From the sequence record MF327009: 64,000 nucleotides of DNA, one strand, 5' to 3'. Shown here piece by piece: positions 384 to 59,445 of the stretch. A program made the translations under genes and the position numbers. The stretch's first letter is position 1. Each line of letters opens with the position of its first letter. The DNA is from Shigella phage Sf25. Below the pieces are notes generated by a model. That model had not been told where the DNA came from. It did not search any database and worked only from the letters and a program-made list of their open reading frames with translations.

Positions 384-2897
384 TCATAATTTACAGGATG
401 AACAATCTTCAGCTTTTGGAGTTTCTATTTCATAATCATCAGTACCAGAACCGTCACGGGTATTATGATAATAGAAATTTTTTCCGCCAAAATACCAAAA
501 ATATAAAAGGTCATCAATCATTATTGACATTGGAACCTTTCCTTTTGGAAAAATCTGCGGGTCATAATATGTATTAGCTGAAGCTGATTGACATACCCAT
601 TTCAGCATAATAGCTACTTGCGTAAGATAAGGTTTATTGCCTTTCTTAGCTAATTTCCACGTATAATCATAGAGGTCTATGTTATGCTCAATATTGGGCA
701 CGACTTGATTAAAGGAACCCTCTTTTGATTCTTTAACAGAGACTGGTCCACGTGGAGGCTCGATACCGTTTGTACTGTTAGAAACTTGGGAAGATGACTC
801 ACATGGCATAAGTGCTGATAATGTGCTATTACGGATGCCAAAGAGCTTAAGGTCTTCCCGCAGCGACGACCAGTCACAAACGTATTTTGGAGCTGCGATT
901 TGGTCAATCTTTTTATTGTACCAGTCGATAGGTAATTCGCCTCGAGACCAACGAGTGTCTGAATAATATTCGCAAGGTCCTTTTTCTTTGGCGAGCTTAA
1001 TGGATGCTTTAATGAGTCCATACTGTAATCTCTCAAATAGTTCATGTGTTAAATCGTTAGCATCTTCATAAGAAGCAAAATTACTTGCCAGCCAAGCTGC
1101 ATAGTTAGTAACACCTACACCAAGATTTCGACGCTTTTTAGCTTTTTCTGCTTCAGGAACTGGATATCCTTGGTAATCCAAAAGATTATCAAGAGCACGA
1201 ACTTGGACTTCTGCCAATTCATTAATTTTATCTTGGTCTTGCCAATCAAAGTTATCTAACACAAATGCAGATAACGTACACAATCCAATTTCAGCATCAG
1301 GACTATTCACATCATTTGTTGGAATAGCAATTTCACAGCACAAGTTGCTCTGACGAATAGGTGCCTTTTCACGAATAAACGGAGTATAGTTATTCGTATT
1401 ATCTATGAACTGTACATAAATCCTTGCTGTTCCTGAGCGTTCAGTCATGAGCAATTCAAATAGTTCACGGGCTTTAATACGCTTTTTACGAATATTAGGG
1501 TCTTTTTCTGCTGCTTCGTATAATTCACGGAAACGGTCTTGGTCTTTAAAATAAGAATAATAAAGCTCGCCACCCATTTCATGCGGACTGAACAAAGTAA
1601 TGTAATCGTTCTTTCCGAATCGTTCCATCATCAAATCATTCAGCTGAACACCATAATCCATATGACGGATACGGTTTTCTTCTACACCTTTGTTATTTTT
1701 CAAAACGAGAAGATTTTCAACTTCCAAATGCCAAATAGGATAATAAGCAGTAGCAGCGCCGCCACGAATTCCACCCTGTGAGCATGATTTAACAGCAGTC
1801 TGAAAATGTTTCCAAAAAGGAATAACACCAGTATGGCGTACTTCACCTGTGCCAATCTTAGAACCTTCGGCACGAATCATACCAACGTTAATACCAATTC
1901 CATAATCCATATGACGGATACGGTTTTCTTCTACACCTTTGTTATTTTTCAAAACGAGAAGATTTTCAACTTCCAAATGCCAAATAGGATAATAAGCAGT
2001 AGCAGCGCCGCCACGAATTCCACCCTGTGAGCATGATTTAACAGCAGTCTGAAAATGTTTCCAAAAAGGAATAACACCAGTATGGCGTACTTCACCTGTG
2101 CCAATCTTAGAACCTTCGGCACGAATCATACCAACGTTAATACCAATTCCAGCGCGTTTGGAGATATATTCAACAATTGAAGCAGAAGCCTTATTGATAG
2201 ACTTTAATGAATCACCTGCTTCAATAACAACGCATGAACTAAACTGCCGAGTTGGAGTACGGCAACCAGCCATAATAGGAGTTGGCAGTGAAATCTGTCG
2301 AGTAGATACTGCTTCATAAAAACGGATAACGTGTTTTAATCTATCAACAGGTTCATCTTGATGCAATGCCATTCCAATAGTCATAAATGCAAACTGTGGA
2401 GTTTCATAAATTTGACCAGTGGTTTTATCTTTAACTAGATATTTTTCTTTTAATTGCATCGCCCCGGAATAAGTAAATTCCATATCCCGCTCGTGCTTAA
2501 TTTTTGATTCTAAAAATGTAATTTCTTCGGCAGAATATTTTGACAACAATTCAGGGTCATATTTACCTTCATTTACACAGTAAGAAATGTGGTCAATAAA
2601 TGAACGTGGTTCATACTGCCCATAAACATGCTTACGAAGAGCGAACATTAAACAGCGTGCAGCTACATATTGATAATCAGGCTCTTCAACTGAAATAGAA
2701 TTCGCAGCAGCCTTAATTACAATGGTTTGAATGTCATCAGTTGTCATTCCATCACGGAGATATGATTTAATATTTTCATATAATTCATAAGGATCTACAG
2801 ATGTTCCTTCAGCTGCCCAAGATAAAACTTTAATAATTTTTTGCGGGTCAAAGCTCTGAGAAACACCACTACTTTTGATAACATTAATTAATTGCAT
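384..2897 (-). CDS. nrdA: Aerobic ribonucleotide reductase large subunit NrdA; 837 aa including an 83-aa in-frame internal tandem duplication
   Basis: ORF track 837 aa; class I RNR alpha sequence; peptide GIGINVGMIRAEGSKIGTGEVRHTGVIPFWKHF...ENRIRHMDY occurs twice in tandem. Confidence 0.9.
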   Translation of the reverse strand: MQLINVIKSSGVSQSFDPQKIIKVLSWAAEGTSVDPYELYENIKSYLRDGMTTDDIQTIVIKAAANSISVEEPDYQYVAARCLMFALRKHVYGQYEPRSFIDHISYCVNEGKYDPELLSKYSAEEITFLESKIKHERDMEFTYSGAMQLKEKYLVKDKTTGQIYETPQFAFMTIGMALHQDEPVDRLKHVIRFYEAVSTRQISLPTPIMAGCRTPTRQFSSCVVIEAGDSLKSINKASASIVEYISKRAGIGINVGMIRAEGSKIGTGEVRHTGVIPFWKHFQTAVKSCSQGGIRGGAATAYYPIWHLEVENLLVLKNNKGVEENRIRHMDYGIGINVGMIRAEGSKIGTGEVRHTGVIPFWKHFQTAVKSCSQGGIRGGAATAYYPIWHLEVENLLVLKNNKGVEENRIRHMDYGVQLNDLMMERFGKNDYITLFSPHEMGGELYYSYFKDQDRFRELYEAAEKDPNIRKKRIKARELFELLMTERSGTARIYVQFIDNTNNYTPFIREKAPIRQSNLCCEIAIPTNDVNSPDAEIGLCTLSAFVLDNFDWQDQDKINELAEVQVRALDNLLDYQGYPVPEAEKAKKRRNLGVGVTNYAAWLASNFASYEDANDLTHELFERLQYGLIKASIKLAKEKGPCEYYSDTRWSRGELPIDWYNKKIDQIAAPKYVCDWSSLREDLKLFGIRNSTLSALMPCESSSQVSNSTNGIEPPRGPVSVKESKEGSFNQVVPNIEHNIDLYDYTWKLAKKGNKPYLTQVAIMLKWVCQSASANTYYDPQIFPKGKVPMSIMIDDLLYFWYFGGKNFYYHNTRDGSGTDDYEIETPKAEDCSSCKL
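1651..2148. repeat. Exact direct tandem duplication, 2 x 249 bp, inside nrdA (boundaries ambiguous by about 3 nt)
   Basis: Sequence beginning cataatccatatgacggatacggttttcttc recurs at 1652 and 1901 with no mismatch seen by eye. Confidence 0.9.
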
Positions 2898-2915: not shown

Positions 2916-3271
2916 TCGTCTTTAAACAATCGGTTAACTATATGAGCTATTATATCACCATGACACGGCTTTGGTTTACATGTGCATCCTAGCCTCATTC
3001 CACGTAAAGGCTCTAAATGTGCTTTAGTTATTTCTCCGGATTTAATTCGACGTATAAAATCTTTTTTGAATAATTCAATGGCAGCCTCCCGGCTCGTCTT
3101 TAAACAATCGGTTAACTATATGAGCTATTATATCACCATGACACGGCTTTGGTTTACATGTGCATCCTAGCCTCATTCCACGTAAAGGCTCTAAATGTGC
3201 TTTAGTTATTTCTCCGGATTTAATTCGACGTATAAAATCTTTTTTGAATAATTCAATGGCAGCCTCCCGGC
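2916..3271. repeat. Exact direct tandem duplication, 2 x 178 bp, spanning the 3' end of a small ORF just upstream of the nrdA start
   Basis: cgtctttaaacaatcggttaactatatgagc... recurs at 2917 and 3095. Confidence 0.9.
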
Positions 3272-3392
3272 TGCCAGCATCTTTACCGACGTAATTTCCC
3301 CAAAATGTACCACGGTGAATATTAACATCAAAGTCGGATTTATATTTATTCACTACCCGGCATAGACGGCCCGCGCGGTTGTAGGTGTTCAT
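3075..3392 (-). CDS. Hypothetical protein (Cys/His-containing); C-terminus altered by the 178-bp duplication
   Basis: ORF track 105 aa; in the duplicated copy the frame ends ...[11 protein letters not shown], while a single-copy reading would give ...RLFKDDFQVEDLCN overlapping the nrdA ATG. Confidence 0.5.
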
Positions 3393-6441: not shown

Positions 6442-6887
6442 TACTTTTTGAAAGTTTTTCGCAAAAGTTCAATGATTTCATCTACATTGTTTTCGTCAAC
6501 AATGCAGTGAATTTTTGTTACGCCAGAAACCTTGTCTATGACTTCATCTACATTGTTTTCGTCAACAATGCAGTGAATTTTTGTTACGCCAGAAACCTTG
6601 TCTTTGACTTCATCTTCTTCAGAAGTCGGTTCTTTATACTCACGAAAACAATGAAATTCATCTTCGCAAATTTCTAAAAGTCTATCTTTGAGGTAAAAAT
6701 GCTTTCCATTTGCGCATTCAATGTGTTTTACTGCTTTATATCCATTAGCGACGGAAACTTCTTTAACTTCAAACCATCCGCCATTATCTCGAATAGCTTT
6801 AACGATTGATGAATTAGAACGTGGGCTATAATTAATAAATGTATCAATAAGTCTTGGAACAAGTTCATACTTTTTGCCAATATACAT
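6441..6887 (-). CDS. Hypothetical protein carrying an in-frame 22-aa tandem repeat
   Basis: ORF track 148 aa; DKVSGVTKIHCIVDENNVDE repeated. Confidence 0.55.
   Translation of the reverse strand: MYIGKKYELVPRLIDTFINYSPRSNSSIVKAIRDNGGWFEVKEVSVANGYKAVKHIECANGKHFYLKDRLLEICEDEFHCFREYKEPTSEEDEVKDKVSGVTKIHCIVDENNVDEVIDKVSGVTKIHCIVDENNVDEIIELLRKTFKK
6477..6608. repeat. Near-exact direct tandem duplication, 2 x 66 bp
   Basis: ttcatctacattgttttcgtcaacaatgcagtgaatttttgttacgccagaaaccttgtct occurs at 6477 and 6543. Confidence 0.85.
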
Positions 6888-8212: not shown

Positions 8213-8310
8213 TTTTATTTCCTTTTTAATTTAATTAACAGTTGGTGCTATGACGATGTATGACCTCATAGCTGGTCAGTGAGATAATTATAATCTATTT
8301 ATAATAAGCA
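8213..8310 (-). promoter_or_regulatory. Gene 32 5' control region: A/U-rich leader (candidate autoregulatory operator) plus overlapping late (TATAAATA, 8296-8303) and MotA-box-like middle promoter elements
   Basis: Minus strand reads TTGCTTATTATAAATAGATTATAAT ... AATTAAATTAAAAAGGAAATAAAAATG. Confidence 0.5.
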
Positions 8311-8311
8311 A

Positions 8312-19800: not shown

Positions 19801-20498
19801 ATGGCAATTGTAGGTGTTCCTGGCTGGATTGGTGAATCTGCCGTGAATGAAACAGGACAGCGTTGGATGGATGCTGCAATGAGAGCAGTCCGTGTTTCAG
19901 TTCCCGGTTGGATGAGCTCAATGGCCGGACAATCTAAAGAAGTATATTATAGCATTGGTGCTAGTAATTCTTATAATAAAGATACATTAATAAACTGAAT
20001 GCATACGTGACACTTAATATCAATTCAGGCGTGCATGTTTGGGGCCGTGGCGGGAATGGCGGAAATAACTCTGCCGGTGGAGCAGGAGGAACTGCAATAA
20101 ATAATGGAATTGGAACTAGATTGCGTATTAACAACAATGGTGTTATCGCAGGAGGCGGTGGCGGCGGTGGAGGCGGATATTATTCTCCTTTTTCACAAAT
20201 GAAATTGACTTTTGGCGGTGGCGGCGGTCGTCCATTTGGTGCTGCTGGCGGGTCTGCTAATATGGAACAGGGCGCTACTGCTGGTACTATTTCTGCACCT
20301 GGTAAAGGGTCTGTCAATGGTATCTATAATGGCGGGAATGGCGGTGATGCTGGTGCCGCAGGTGGTAAATGTAATATTCGTGGGCAAGGATCAGAATATA
20401 ACGGCGGTGCGGCCGGTAAAGCTGTTACTGGTAATGCTCCAACTTGGACTAAGGTTGGTACAATATATGGCCCTCTGATATTCTATTTGGTGTTCTAG
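19801..20498 (+). pseudogene. 38: Receptor-recognising adhesin gp38 (T2-type, glycine-rich motifs), split into two reading frames
   Basis: N-terminal 65-aa ORF (MAIVGVPGWIG...) ends at a stop at 19996-19998; the glycine-rich part (GGGGGGGGYY...) follows in another frame from 20007. Confidence 0.55.
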
Positions 20499-27857: not shown

Positions 27858-28119
27858 TTAGACTTTCCTTTTTACCGCTGAGATAAGCGTTATACACTTT
27901 AAGAGTACCGTAGTAAATTCGGTCATTTTCATCTAAAGACACACGGTCAAGTTCATCAAGTTCCTTTTTATCCATGACTATAACATCATTGCAATAAAGA
28001 AACCCAAGTTTTTCGTGACCAAACTCAAATTTATTACAGTACACAATATTAGCGTGATGATTTCCGTGCAGTTTAATCTCTTTTATGTCGGAATCACCGA
28101 TATTCATACAATAAATCAT
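27790..28119 (-). CDS. Hypothetical protein (overlaps denB start by about 68 nt)
   Basis: ORF track 109 aa. Confidence 0.45.
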   Translation of the reverse strand: MIYCMNIGDSDIKEIKLHGNHHANIVYCNKFEFGHEKLGFLYCNDVIVMDKKELDELDRVSLDENDRIYYGTLKVYNAYLSGKKESLNAENESGFTETISDSDIYPIEQ

Positions 28120-28144
28120 AATTTTTCCTTAAAACAAAAGGGCC
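28120..28144 (-). terminator. Intrinsic terminator with UUCG tetraloop
   Basis: Minus strand AAGGGC-UUCG-GCCCTT followed by TTTTGTTTT. Confidence 0.65.
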
Positions 28145-28157
28145 GAAGCCCTTTATT

Positions 28158-28352
28158 TTACTTGAATTGTGCAATTCTTTTCTCTAGACATTCAGCATAA
28201 GATTTCATTGAGATGAACTGTGAAAGCAGCAGTTCTTGCTCAACTGCACTAACCGTTAGAAACTTTGTGCTTTCTAAAAATTTGCTCAGTGCATTAATTT
28301 TGAGCATTAATTGATCGTATTCTTCTTTTACTCGTGCTTGATAACCTAACAT
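28158..28352 (-). CDS. Hypothetical protein
   Basis: ORF track 64 aa; AAGGAAA RBS. Confidence 0.5.
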   Translation of the reverse strand: MLGYQARVKEEYDQLMLKINALSKFLESTKFLTVSAVEQELLLSQFISMKSYAECLEKRIAQFK

Positions 28353-29330: not shown

Positions 29331-31757
29331 TTAGGCCGCAAGGGCCTTCATAGTTTTAGCGATTTGAGAAACTTCATCATCACTTAAAGAGTTGCGATAA
29401 CCGATGAAGTCGGAAACAATACGGAATTTCTTGGTAAACTCAGCAACCATTTTATCACTGTTTTTTGAAGCATTATTTGATAATACATCAAAAAGATTAG
29501 TTACTGTCCAGATGTCATGACCGATGGTACCTTTTCCACCGTTGAAATATACGCCCCGCAATGAACTAACTATATTAGCGAGTCGTGTATATTCTTCAGA
29601 AACTTCATCTGTACTGAAGTACTTCATCATAAAATCTAGTTCAGGATACTTGATAATTTTATCAATATATCGTTGAGCTGAACTTGAATAACCTACGTAC
29701 TTATCATAATCTACATCATCAAAAGCATCTACATATAAATCACGCAGAGTTTCAAAAATACATTGGCACTGACCGAGTTCTTTTACCTTTTTCTGCAAAA
29801 GCGGACGAATAACATAAAATTCATTAATGCCAATAAGATTAGCCATACGAATCAAAATATTCATAGATGGATGACAAAGAGATGTAGTACCATCCATAGA
29901 GAAAATATCAGAACGATGCATATACGCTACATAACCAGTAATTTCATCTGCTTCTGATGTGAGCGTAAACAGTTCCTCTTTTTCCCATCGCCCATCTTTA
30001 ATTTCAAACTTAAATGCTGTAGCAGCTTTAGGACGAGGAGCTTTACTTTTAACTACCTTTGGAATATAGCTTTTAACTAAAGCTTCAATTTCTGACAAAT
30101 AATGAATGTTAACTTCATCACTTTCAAACATCGCCATAATATCAGGAAGTAAATCAATCTGCGATTCTACTTCTGGATTAATAAACAGAAGACGCTCATT
30201 GTGATGAATATTCAAAGTGTTATTAAATTCACTATCATCTAACGCATGTGCTAATCCACGAACAATATTAACACGATTTTTAATATTATCAATAACGATA
30301 TTAATTTTTGTTGTATTAATACCAAACAGACGATAACTTGATGCAACGGCTGAAGTTTCATGACTTTGCTTAATGCGTTTCAGTCGAGGGTCAAGATTTA
30401 CTTCATACACAACTCCTGCATTGCATAACTTACTGTCAGGTTCAAACATGCTCTGCATCTTTTTATATGACAGATTTTTAGTCGTGAATTTGACTGAATT
30501 ACTAATCATATAATCTCGAGCAGAATATCCCATCTTCATCAATTCACGATATGTGTGACGAGGAGATGTAGATTCTTTAAATCGTTTTACATCTTCATTG
30601 AATGCCTTCTCACTAAGCTCTTTAACACGCTCAATAATATTTTTACGAGTACGATCATCTAGTGAAAGAGCTTCGCGTGATGGAGCAATATCAAGTGAAC
30701 CCATTGGAAACTTAATGTAATTCACTTCATTGCGAATGCTTAGCCAGTTACGGTCTCTAATAACACCATCGATAGGATAAACAATACCGCCATAGATAGC
30801 ATATAATCCACCACGATCAGGCCAGTATCTTTCTGGATTTACACCATAATAATCATCAAAATCAGGAAAATAATCAATTTCAATAATATTTTTACGAGTA
30901 CGATCATCTAGTGAAAGAGCTTCGCGTGATGGAGCAATATCAAGTGAACCCATTGGAAACTTAATGTAATTCACTTCATTGCGAATGCTTAGCCAGTTAC
31001 GGTCTCTAATAACACCATCGATAGGATAAACAATACCGCCATAGATAGCATATAATCCACCACGATCAGGCCAGTATCTTTCTGGATTTACACCATAATA
31101 ATCATCAAAATCAGGAAAATAATCAATTTCGCGGTCAAGACCATTAATGATAGCCAAATCTTTGAACGGTCGCATGATATAAGAAACTTCATAAGCAAAG
31201 TTTCTAAAGTCTTTTTCTTCAACTGGAACTACGATTTCAATACCAGTTTTATCATCTGGACCCATTTCTTTTACGAATGTAGGTTTAATCTGTGGGCCAT
31301 CACCATCCATGTAAGCTACATAACCACGAATTTCACCTTTATGATACGAAGTAATACTAAACGTATCAGTATAACTAAACGGAGATTTAGAACCTAAACC
31401 AAATCCGCCAATAAAGTCATTAGATTCAGCCTTAGATGAACTGAAGTATGAATTATACAGCCCAGGAGAATTATCATCACCCTGAATATCAAAATCACTC
31501 ATACCCGGACCAAAATCTCGACAAACAAATCGTGGATCTAATCGTCCTGGAACTTGAATGATAAATTTTTCAGGATTTCCATTAAGTGCATGAGCATCAA
31601 TCATGTTAGTAATCAATTCACGGACTACTGCGCGAATCTTGTTTGTATACAAATCAGATGACAGAATTTTAAATACTTTAGGATTTGCTGCGATGCTAAA
31701 TGCTTTTGATTTAGAACCATTGCCAAGAATTGTTTCTTTTTCAGTGGTGATAATCAT
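29331..31757 (-). CDS. rIIA: rIIA protein; 808 aa including an 83-aa in-frame tandem duplication
   Basis: N-terminal GHKL-like ATPase sequence; peptide [25 protein letters not shown]...RTRKNII occurs twice. Confidence 0.9.
30632..31129. repeat. Exact direct tandem duplication, 2 x 249 bp, inside rIIA
   Basis: caataatatttttacgagtacgatcatctagtgaaagagc... begins at 30632 and 30881. Confidence 0.9.
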
Positions 31758-42809: not shown

Positions 42810-42839
42810 ATCATATCATCGTTAGAAAGGAAAGTAAAC
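42810..42839 (-). promoter_or_regulatory. Putative early promoter for modB (GTTTAC-N18-TATGAT); part of it is re-created in the adjacent duplication
   Basis: Reverse complement GTTTACTTTCCTTTCTAACGATGATATGAT, then GGAGG RBS. Confidence 0.5.
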
Positions 42840-43228
42840 AACTTTTTGAATTATTTTGCCCAGGGAGCCCAAGGCGGAGGGTCAAGATGGTATGAAGCTA
42901 GTTCTTCTAGAAGAGCATCTGGGGCTTCAATTCCATAATTCTGTAATACTATACGGTACTCTTTCTTATAATCACTAGAATCATTCTGGTTATTCGTAGA
43001 ATGATTATCTTCTAACATTCATATCATCGTTAGAAAGGAAAGTAAACAACTTTTTGAATTATTTTGCCCAGGGAGCCCAAGGCGGAGGGTCAAGATGGTA
43101 TGAAGCTAGTTCTTCTAGAAGAGCATCTGGGGCTTCAATTCCATAATTCTGTAATACTATACGGTACTCTTTCTTATAATCACTAGAATCATTCTGGTTA
43201 TTCGTAGAATGATTATCTTCTAACATCT
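42813..43228. repeat. Exact direct tandem duplication, 2 x 208 bp, covering a promoter/intergenic region and most of a small ORF
   Basis: atatcatcgttagaaaggaaagtaaacaactttttgaattattttgcccagggagccc... begins at 42813 and 43021. Confidence 0.9.
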
Positions 43229-45530: not shown

Positions 45531-46293
45531 TTAATAGCCTCGATCTTGACGAGCGAAGTTTTCAGCATTTTTCAGATAATAAAGTTTAAAGATTTCCTCA
45601 GCTGACATTCCAAGAGCAATGAATTTATTCATGAAAAAGTGAAATTGGTCAATCAGTTCAAATTTAATTTCAAGCTGATCTTCAGGAGATAAGTCTTGAA
45701 TTTTCTTGGATTGCATTTCAGAATAACGTTTCTTCCAAGGTTTCCATACAGCAGAAGCTTCTTTTTCACCATTACTCATACCACCAAGAGAAGTATATAG
45801 CTCGCGAGTTTCATCTGCGATATAATCGTCTTGGTTTCGCAACCAAGCAAGAACTTCTCCTGCAGTTTCAAGTGAATCAGGATGACGATTTGTTTCTGGT
45901 TTATCATTAGCCAAACGAATCTGTAAATGCCGCTGCATGTCAAATTTTCTTGGATTGCATTTCAGAATAACGTTTCTTCCAAGGTTTCCATACAGCAGAA
46001 GCTTCTTTTTCACCATTACTCATACCACCAAGAGAAGTATATAGCTCGCGAGTTTCATCTGCGATATAATCGTCTTGGTTTCGCAACCAAGCAAGAACTT
46101 CTCCTGCAGTTTCAAGTGAATCAGGATGACGATTTGTTTCTGGTTTATCATTAGCCAAACGAATCTGTAAATGCCGCTGCATGTCAAGCATAACCTGCAA
46201 TGGGTCAATACTGTGCATAATATACTCAGCATATGCACGATTTGCTTTATCAACACCTTCGATCAAATGAGCACATTCATTAAAGTGAGCCAT
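45531..46293 (-). pseudogene. 56: dCTPase/dUTPase gp56 (MazG-like) disrupted by a frameshifting 244-bp tandem duplication
   Basis: N-terminal frame MAHFNECAHLIEGVDK... (AAGGAAA RBS) terminates at the repeat junction near 45940; C-terminal part ...ALGMSAEEIFKLYYLKNAENFARQDRGY is in another frame. Confidence 0.6.
45700..46187. repeat. Exact direct tandem duplication, 2 x 244 bp (not a multiple of 3), inside gene 56
   Basis: attttcttggattgcatttcagaataacgtttcttcc... begins at 45700 and 45944. Confidence 0.9.
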
Positions 46294-56601: not shown

Positions 56602-59445
56602 TCAGCCAAACAGGAAGTCTAACGAAGCTTTTTCTTCATAGTCCATACCAGCCGATTCACACATGCCTGCAAGCGGTTTAACAAACGATTTTTGGAACAA
56701 AGTTGAGTAGTCAATCCAAGACAGTACGTCAGAACGAATTTCTTTTGGAAGTTCTGTACCCGACGGCCAAGCAATGCATTTGTCACCAAATGGATTTCCT
56801 TCACGCAATGGAAGAACCATTACTTTATTTCCATCCAAAATTGGAGCTACACCTAAACCGCTAACAGCTCGACGATAAGTTAGCACACCACGAATATGGA
56901 ACGGACATTTAAATCCTGGCCAACCTTTATCATCATATTTCGCTATATCGTTCGCAGTTTTTACTTCAGCAATAACTTTATAGTCAAGTTGACGATATTC
57001 TTTCTCGAAGTTCTTGTAATATTCTTGGACAGACTCTTCACCTTCCTGAAGAATACGACGAATACTTTCTTCGAGAGCTTCTTGGACCGCTTTAGGCGTT
57101 GAACTCTGCTGAGTTTCCATACCCATGATTTTTAGATGCGGTTCAGCAAATCGCTTATCTTCCATATCATATACGTTCAGAGCATAACGCTTTTTCGCTT
57201 TCCAAAATCCGCCAACGCCCTTTGAACCAAGTGGAGGGCAAGAAATAGCTTCACGGTCCATATGCATCAGATGCTCGCGGTTATTCATATAATCACATAA
57301 CTCACGATATGCAACATCAATCATAGGTTCCATCTTTTTCTTACCGAACTGATTCATGAATTCAACTAAATCGTTCTGCTCTTTGAATCGGTCAAGACCA
57401 ACTTTTTCAATAACTTTATCTACACAAACATATACCGAATCAGTATCACCTGCTGCAATGAAATCTTCGCCATTAGTTCCGCATACTTTATTCAGATATT
57501 CATTAATTTTACGAGCAATCCACTGAATACCAACTTGGCCGAAAATTGTGATAGCAGTAGCATTTCGCAAATCATAGTAACGGAAATGAATATTACCAAG
57601 AGCACCATAAAGACTGTTAATAAGAATTTTACGGTTCAGCTGATTTGTGTTAGCAAGTGTAGCTGCTTTTTCACACTCTTCGATCAAACTATTAAGAACA
57701 GATTCGGTGTAATTCGATAGTTCATTTAAGAAATCATCACTGAACTTAACATATCGTTCAACTTCTGGTTTAGTTGAGCAAGACCCTGCGCCTTTCATAA
57801 TAATCTTTTTAATAGCTTCGGCATTCATTTCTTCAGCGAACATTTTCTTTTTCCAATCTTTACGCTGGAAAAATACTTTAGCGATTTCCTTTGGAATGAT
57901 ACCTTCTTGATGCTTATCATACATCCATCCATTCGGAGAACAAGAATATTCATCACTCGGTTTAGGAGCTGTTCCTGCGATATATTCATGAATTGGATGA
58001 ACTTTAAACTGACCACGAATAGTCTCAGGACTAATGTTAACCTGACGAATAATGCTCGGATACAGAGACGTCAAGTCAAAACTCATAATATATCGACGAG
58101 CAATTGGTTTAGGTTCAAACACAAATGCACCCGGAAAACTCTGTTTAACGTGCGAACCTTGTTGAGGAATAACCTTATGTTCACCTTTCAATGAGTTAAA
58201 AATAATAGCATCCCAAGTTTTAATAGGACTCATTACACCGGAAAAAGGCATTTTAGCGTAATAAGACATACTTAAAACTAGATCGATAAACCCGCGAATT
58301 TTATCAATTGCTTGAACTGATTCTACGTCAATGATGTTATAACTAATGTATCGTTGATGATTAGTCTCACGAAGTTTATTAATAGGACCGTCGTATGGTA
58401 ATTTACCTTTTTTGGTTTCATGTTGAGCAACTGATTCCAAAGAGAATGACGGCAAATTAGTAAAAGCGAATTTCTTGTACAAATCTAAATAATCAAGAAT
58501 AGATACGCCATCAATAGAATAAATTTCTTTGCTGCCGTACATATTTTGAATTAGTTTGGATTTTACCCGACCGATTGGAGAGAAACGTTTCATACTGCGT
58601 TCGCCTAGAATCATTTTAACACGATTCATGATATATGGAACGTCAAACCCCTCAATATTCCAACCGGTAAAAATAGCAGGTCGTTTCTGTTCCCAGAGAT
58701 TGATATATTCCATGAGCATATCACGCTCATTATCGAATGGCATATAAATTACTCGGTCAAGAATTTCTTGAGGAACTTCATCACCACCTTCACAGTCAAG
58801 CTTAGCAGCTAACTTTGCATCCCATTTTGATACTGAACCGTACATTGAATTCAAAAGGTCGAAAACATAAAAACGATCGTCAATTGAATCGTAATGAGTG
58901 ATAGCATCAATTTCATATTCAGCTTTCATTGGGTCAGGAAATTTATCACCAGTAACCTCAATGTCACAGTTAGCTACACGAACACCGTACATTGAATTCA
59001 AAAGGTCGAAAACATAAAAACGATCGTCAATTGAATCGTAATGAGTGATAGCATCAATTTCATATTCAGCTTTCATTGGGTCAGGAAATTTATCACCAGT
59101 AACCTCAATGTCACAGTTAGCTACACGAACAAATTTTCGGTCATAAACAATTTCTGAACCATATGTATCACTGATATAAGCGAGTTTAAAATCGTTCATA
59201 CCGAGAGCTTCGAGACCGATGTCTTCCATTCGCTTCATCCAATCTCGAGCATCTTTCATTGATGGAAATTTTTGAGGAGCGCAGTTTTTACCATAGATGT
59301 CTTTGTACTTTGACTCTTCCTTACAATGCCTAAACATAGTTGGAAGATATTCTACTTCACGAGTACGTTCCTTTCCATTTTCATCAATATAACGTTCAAC
59401 AATATTATTTCCGACTGTTTCAATAGAGATATAAAATTCTTTCAT
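56602..59445 (-). CDS. 43: DNA polymerase gp43 (family B); 947 aa including a 49-aa in-frame tandem duplication in the N-terminal/exonuclease region
   Basis: Pol B motifs (DxxSLYPS-like FDLTSLYPSII, YGDTDS-like GDTDSVY); peptide VRVANCDIEVTGDKFPDPMKAEYEIDAITHYDSIDDRFYVFDLLNSMYG occurs twice. Confidence 0.92.
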   Translation of the reverse strand: MKEFYISIETVGNNIVERYIDENGKERTREVEYLPTMFRHCKEESKYKDIYGKNCAPQKFPSMKDARDWMKRMEDIGLEALGMNDFKLAYISDTYGSEIVYDRKFVRVANCDIEVTGDKFPDPMKAEYEIDAITHYDSIDDRFYVFDLLNSMYGVRVANCDIEVTGDKFPDPMKAEYEIDAITHYDSIDDRFYVFDLLNSMYGSVSKWDAKLAAKLDCEGGDEVPQEILDRVIYMPFDNERDMLMEYINLWEQKRPAIFTGWNIEGFDVPYIMNRVKMILGERSMKRFSPIGRVKSKLIQNMYGSKEIYSIDGVSILDYLDLYKKFAFTNLPSFSLESVAQHETKKGKLPYDGPINKLRETNHQRYISYNIIDVESVQAIDKIRGFIDLVLSMSYYAKMPFSGVMSPIKTWDAIIFNSLKGEHKVIPQQGSHVKQSFPGAFVFEPKPIARRYIMSFDLTSLYPSIIRQVNISPETIRGQFKVHPIHEYIAGTAPKPSDEYSCSPNGWMYDKHQEGIIPKEIAKVFFQRKDWKKKMFAEEMNAEAIKKIIMKGAGSCSTKPEVERYVKFSDDFLNELSNYTESVLNSLIEECEKAATLANTNQLNRKILINSLYGALGNIHFRYYDLRNATAITIFGQVGIQWIARKINEYLNKVCGTNGEDFIAAGDTDSVYVCVDKVIEKVGLDRFKEQNDLVEFMNQFGKKKMEPMIDVAYRELCDYMNNREHLMHMDREAISCPPLGSKGVGGFWKAKKRYALNVYDMEDKRFAEPHLKIMGMETQQSSTPKAVQEALEESIRRILQEGEESVQEYYKNFEKEYRQLDYKVIAEVKTANDIAKYDDKGWPGFKCPFHIRGVLTYRRAVSGLGVAPILDGNKVMVLPLREGNPFGDKCIAWPSGTELPKEIRSDVLSWIDYSTLFQKSFVKPLAGMCESAGMDYEEKASLDFLFG
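58837..59130. repeat. Exact direct tandem duplication, 2 x 147 bp, inside gene 43
   Basis: accgtacattgaattcaaaaggtcgaaaacataaaaacgatcg... begins at 58837 and 58984. Confidence 0.9.

Follow-up and report, generated by a model that had tools for sequence, protein, structure and literature searches.

Bacteriophage T4 is known to form tandem duplications readily, and its genuine duplications, amplifications and deletions arise by recombination at 2-10 bp of microhomology, typically 6-10 bp (Srikant et al. 2022, PMC9391042). The window described here, by which we mean the whole 64-kb stretch of DNA that was analysed, carries a 208-bp tandem repeat just upstream of modB. This repeat resembles the dmd-tifA amplification of that study, and the rII and gene 16-18 duplications cited there, in being a head-to-tail direct repeat and in lying in an early, largely non-essential region, with modB ~3 kb from gene 56. 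The window was not found to include the dmd-tifA locus itself, whose position is beyond gene 61. The T4 events span whole genes, were selected and leave the genome viable, whereas the junction at the modB locus has 0 bp of microhomology and cuts both an open reading frame (ORF) and a -10 hexamer, and its companion events wreck essential genes.

Errors in assembly or finishing also produce false duplications and collapsed gaps, and false duplications where contigs end form an established class of such errors (Ko et al. 2022, Genome Biol, PMC9516828). The events in the window share with them identical adjacent copies, several events per assembly, false gene gains or broken genes, and absence from independent assemblies of relatives. 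In vertebrates, most cases derive from haplotypes and have gaps between the copies, whereas the copies in the window abut directly, are 66-249 bp long and occur together with clean deletions; their cause we infer from that context.

A third described system concerns what the repeat contains. T4 early 'uber' promoters combine UP, -35, TGn and -10 elements (Hinton 2010, PMC2988021), and the native modB promoter at 42839-42810 is built in the same way, with GTTTAC, TG and TATGAT, and is kept in T4 and its relatives. The copy of this promoter at the duplication junction, in contrast, differs in the last base of the -10 hexamer alone and reads TATGAA.

The window belongs to a Tequatrovirus, a T4-like phage, and is otherwise ordinary. 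Approximately 500 Tequatrovirus records match the 2-kb region around the duplication at 95-99% identity, the closest over 24 kb being Shigella phage Sf24 (96.9%); none of the records is identical to the window. Gene names were assigned by comparison with the T4 record AF158101, phage Lutter and Sf24. All genes of the locus lie on the minus strand:

41592-40846, minus strand: srd
42163-41717, minus strand: modA, 148 amino acids
42783-42160, minus strand: modB, encoding an ADP-ribosyltransferase of 207 amino acids, intact, with the Shine-Dalgarno (SD) sequence GGAGG at 42793-42789
43241-43059, minus strand: modA.2, encoding a hypothetical protein of 60 amino acids, intact and 100% identical in amino acid sequence to Sf24 ModA.2
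43732-43250, minus strand: modA.3, 160 amino acids, Pfam T4_MRH

ModA.3 matches Pfam PF24070, the T4 MRH-like family (E = 3.5e-37), and is therefore a paralogue of Mrh; modA.3 lies two genes from mrh. A Pfam scan of ModA.2, ModB and the shortened ModA matched no family. Elsewhere, the window differs from Sf24 at ~8275-8311, ~27977-28240 and ~45499, where the differences are larger and resemble ordinary mosaicism. The homing endonuclease gene segG is absent between genes 32 and 59, the Sf24 paralogues gp121 and gp122 are represented by one copy rather than two, and Sf24 gp155 and gp156 are missing between soc and gene 56.

Tandem Repeats Finder reports 2.0 perfect copies with a period of 208 bp at 42811-43226, with 100% identity and zero indels, and a second repeat program divides this tract into 42811-43018 and 43019-43226. 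The periodic tract is exactly 416 nt long. Position 42810 differs from 43018 and position 43227 differs from 43019, and the junction therefore has 0 nt of microhomology. Chance cannot account for a perfect tandem repeat of 208 nt. Read on the minus strand, the unit starts at the ATG of modA.2 codon 6 and ends with the fifth base of the modB promoter -10 hexamer, and comprises modA.2 codons 6-60 with the stop codon, an A/T-rich intergenic tract, GTTTAC, the spacer, TG and TATGA. The parts of the repeat are as follows:

43019-43226, minus strand: upstream copy in the sense of transcription, with modA.2 codons 6-60 and stop codon followed by a partial modB promoter
42811-43018, minus strand: downstream copy, with a 55-codon modA.2 fragment followed by the -35 box, TG and five -10 bases of the native modB promoter
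43018-42851, minus strand: ORF of the modA.2 fragment, starting at Met6
43018/43019: junction, on the plus strand ...TCTTCTAACAT followed directly by TCATATCATCGTT..., 0 nt of microhomology

The sequence spanning the junction is TCTTCTAACATTCATATCATCGTT. The first-pass annotation had placed a 208-bp tandem duplication at 42813-43228; both repeat programs recover the repeat, while its coordinates were 2 nt off. Its description of the unit as holding the -35 box GTTTAC and most of a 60-codon ORF is borne out by the minus-strand reading, in which GTTTAC is accompanied by TGn and five of the six -10 bases, and 55 of the 60 modA.2 codons are present. The leader and ribosome-binding site of modB, which it had also assigned to the unit, are not part of it: the unit stops within the -10 hexamer at 42811, and GGAGG (42793-42789) lies outside in single copy. 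The extra modA.2 fragment has 55 codons and no recognisable ribosome-binding site. Since modA.2, the native modB promoter and modB are all unbroken, the duplication is harmless on paper, which accounts for its plausibility to the first-pass annotation.

The two promoter-like sequences at the locus can be compared directly:

42810-42839, minus strand: native modB early promoter, intact and next to modB, with GTTTAC at 42839-42834, an 18-nt spacer, TG at 42818-42817 and TATGAT at 42815-42810
43018-43047, minus strand: junction pseudo-promoter, with GTTTAC at 43047-43042, the same spacer and TG, and TATGAA at 43023-43018

The native promoter coincides with a 'promoter' feature annotated between modA.2 and modB in phage Lutter, and it is the only minus-strand call made by a consensus scan of the modA.2-modB intergenic region (42838-42810). 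It occurs once and nearly unchanged in T4, Lutter, Sf24 and six metagenomic loci representing five distinct contigs. At the junction, the -35 box and TGn are spaced as in the native promoter (18 nt), and, as had been noted earlier, GTTTAC is regenerated with an altered -10 hexamer: the unit stops at the fifth -10 base, so the hexamer reads TATGAA rather than TATGAT. The T at position 6 (the -7 T) is thus missing, and the consensus scan makes no call there. The further suggestion that the second copy potentially adds a transcription start, made with the reservation 'if the duplication is real', is unsupported, given that TATGAA goes uncalled, that the leader and ribosome-binding site lie outside the unit, and that the duplication belongs to a set of about 14 events. 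Two of the three elements -35, TGn and -10 can suffice for a sigma-70 promoter (PMC2988021), so some residual activity of the TATGAA copy is possible in principle. Membership of a set of ~14 events that are blind to reading frame and wreck essential genes nevertheless makes a real duplication adding a transcription start very unlikely, and the junction copy of the promoter is probably absent from the phage itself.

A strong hairpin is predicted on the minus strand at 42820-42775 (-20.8 kcal/mol, z = -5.05), in which the region overlapping the -10 hexamer pairs with the SD sequence and AUG of modB. Because most of the 5' arm precedes the expected start, the structure would form, and mask modB translation, only in transcripts reading through from modA.3 and modA.2. 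Natural variation among relatives, G to A on the 5' side and C to U on the 3' side, preserves pairing as A-U or G-U. The arrangement resembles that known in T4 for gene e and soc.

The modB repeat has companions throughout the window. Running Tandem Repeats Finder over its full length identified seven perfect 2.0-copy arrays of 114-249 bp and one 66-bp array:

1651-2151, minus strand: 249 bp twice in nrdA, adding 83 amino acids in frame
2916-3272, minus strand: 178 bp twice, frameshifting nrdA.1
6472-6615: 66 bp, 2.2 copies at 97% identity, in frame within frd.2
30631-31130, minus strand: 249 bp twice in rIIA, adding 83 amino acids in frame
42811-43226, minus strand: 208 bp twice, at modA.2 and the modB promoter
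45699-46187, minus strand: 244 bp twice in gene 56 (dCTPase), a frameshift after which the ORF beginning MAHF ends at 117 of 172 amino acids
54767-54994, minus strand: 114 bp twice in gene 42 (dCMP hydroxymethylase), adding 38 amino acids in frame
58837-59131, minus strand: 147 bp twice in gene 43 (DNA polymerase), adding 49 amino acids in frame

Of the eight duplications, seven fall in coding sequence; of the seven perfect periods, three are not divisible by three. In an alignment of the window to Sf24, the Sf24 coordinates of the matching segments overlap at each duplication. No period is longer than 249 bp, and three of the eight lie at 244-249 bp, a ceiling that hints at a read length of ~250 nt. 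In relatives, the frd.2 repeat is represented by one unit between imperfect direct repeats of 12-14 nt (ATGAYTTCATCTAC); the 66-bp array may belong to the same set of artefacts or may be a genuine repeat-mediated duplication.

Alignment to Sf24 also revealed at least six clean deletions of 72-173 bp with sharp junctions, seven being listed here:

8809/8810, minus strand: 173-bp deletion removing gp59 residues 1-52 and gp33 residues 110-112 with the stop codon
18146/18147: 173-bp deletion in gp37
~19997-20002: ~103-bp deletion in gp38
20470/20471, plus strand: 72-bp deletion from the end of gp38 across the intergenic region into holin t, which loses its start codon with the first 9 residues
26625/26626: 130-bp deletion in ndd.2a/ndd.4
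41990/41991, minus strand: 156-bp in-frame deletion in modA, removing 52 codons (148 amino acids versus 200), 820 bp from the duplication
60190/60191, minus strand: 139-bp deletion frameshifting gene 62 (clamp loader), with residues 118-164 lost

Three of these, the 173-bp deletion in gp37 and the ~103-bp deletion in gp38, both in hypervariable regions, and the ndd.2a/ndd.4 deletion, in a small and less conserved accessory gene, could be natural alleles.

The effects on genes were determined by collapsing the repeats and by tblastn with Sf24 proteins. Around the lesions, amino acid identity to Sf24 is 98-100%, so the events are lesions rather than diverged alleles. T4 genes 43, 62, 42 and 56 are essential, and holin t is required for lysis. 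Real T4 duplications are found in viable genomes; here, by contrast, gp56 and gp62 are frameshifted, with the dCTPase coding sequence of gp56 split over two frames, gp59 and the holin have no start, and gp43 and gp42 carry insertions. A phage bearing the sequence of the window could not propagate. The 208-bp duplication at the modB locus is the sole event that breaks no gene and, taken alone, would for that reason be compatible with a viable phage.

In coordinate order, the junctions of the seven perfect duplications have 3, 1, 2, 0, 1, 0 and 1 nt of homology. As a null model, 20,000 random duplications were simulated in the repeat-collapsed window, in which homology averaged 0.76 nt, with P(0) = 0.53 and P(6 or more) = 0.003. 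The seven junctions of the window average 1.14 nt, which is at chance level (P of a mean at least so high = 0.20). The events thus resemble random breakpoints, unlike the T4 recombination events at 2-10 bp of homology (PMC9391042). Microhomology-mediated slippage or recombination is rejected as the origin of the 208-bp repeat on account of the 0 nt at its junction and the chance level of the whole set.

Junction-centred queries of 160-251 bp were compared with 50,697 phage records, covering the 208-bp duplication, the modA deletion, the gp56, 66-bp and gp43 duplications and the gp62 deletion. None of the queried junctions had a contiguous match in those records; the best records match each as two pieces, and their span corresponds to the single-copy or undeleted state. 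The junction of the 208-bp duplication is absent from ~500-520 Tequatrovirus relatives, all of which are single-copy at this site, and a natural mosaic allele is therefore rejected. Likewise, the modA and gp62 deletion junctions and the extra 66-bp unit are absent from ~500 phage records. Exact matching of a 24-mer that spans the 208-bp junction gave no hits in IMG/VR, JGI metagenome contigs or GTDB genome contigs. A window-specific modB 38-mer, which has no match in the genome contigs, was found at two IMG/VR and four metagenome loci. These represent five distinct contigs, 96-97% identical to the window, as one 49,529-bp contig occurs in two collections (loci L005 and L007). All five contigs are single-copy at the duplication site and have a full-length modA.

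From this context we infer that the 208-bp duplication is very probably a non-biological defect of the sequence as written. As one of ~14 clean small duplications and deletions that break essential genes, it is almost certainly a construction error. Exact, abutting two-copy arrays recur, clean deletions accompany them, and both disregard reading frame and essentiality. Most likely, contigs or reads would have been joined end to end in reference order with their ends unreconciled: an overlap left unmerged would give an exact two-copy tandem duplication, while an uncovered gap closed without Ns would give a clean deletion. Perfect overlaps of 100-249 bp normally do not survive unmerged in modern assemblers, so such joining would need an unusual or manual finishing step. 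Random in silico edits to a real genome would look identical and, judged from the letters alone, could not be told apart from joining errors.

The alternative that survives best, improbable as we consider it, is that the duplication at the modB locus is genuine and arose freshly in the phage stock, the other events in the window being artefacts. It would add a truncated copy of modA.2 and a weakened -35/TGn copy of the promoter 208 bp upstream. In its favour, this is the only event that leaves genes unbroken, tandem duplication occurs readily in T4 (PMC9391042), and the 100% identity of the copies is as expected of a recent event. On the other hand, the repeat shares its signature (2.0 copies, size class, 0 nt of microhomology) with events that destroy genes, a clean 156-bp deletion lies just 820 bp away in modA, and the junction is found in none of ~520 relatives or the three contig collections, while real T4 duplications have 2-10 bp of microhomology (PMC9391042). 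We give correspondingly little credence to its biological corollary, namely a recent microhomology-free duplication in which the weakened promoter copy and an N-terminally truncated modA.2 paralogue slightly alter ModB and ModA expression.

It is highly improbable that all the events are real and reside on one defective, non-propagating genome, either a damaged molecule from a metagenome or a mutagenised stock sustained by a helper. Consistent with such a genome, the sequence outside the events is normal and intact, with gp44 and holin residues 10-218 being 100% identical to Sf24. However, ~14 independent lesions in 64 kb with no point damage and with chance-level junctions match no known biological pattern, gp56, gp62, gp59 and the holin start would all have to be complemented simultaneously, and the 208-bp junction, the one searched for in the metagenome collections, has no second instance there. 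Scarcely credible is a real and adaptive duplication whose extra promoter copy raises or retimes modB and modA transcription: although the junction copy retains the A/T-rich upstream region, GTTTAC, the 18-nt spacer, TG and TATGA, and sigma-70 promoters with two of three elements can work (PMC2988021), it has lost the last -10 T and fails the requirement of the scan, modB is already driven by a strong and intact native promoter lying 208 bp downstream, RNA started at the upstream copy would include the 5' arm of the hairpin in which the SD sequence and AUG of modB are sequestered, and the evidence indicates that the duplication itself is unreal.

With a construction artefact as the preferred reading, the value of the 208-bp duplication lies in quality control rather than biology, and the window is unsuited to mining for structural novelties. 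The apparent states of gp56, gp62, gp59/gp33, the holin and modA, together with the insertions in gp43, gp42, nrdA and rIIA, should be regarded as suspect until checked against reads, and any other tandem duplication, truncated gene, gene fusion or apparent pseudogene in the window is equally suspect. Should the duplication be real after all, it would represent a minor change, probably neutral, to an early and non-essential region in a T4-like phage.
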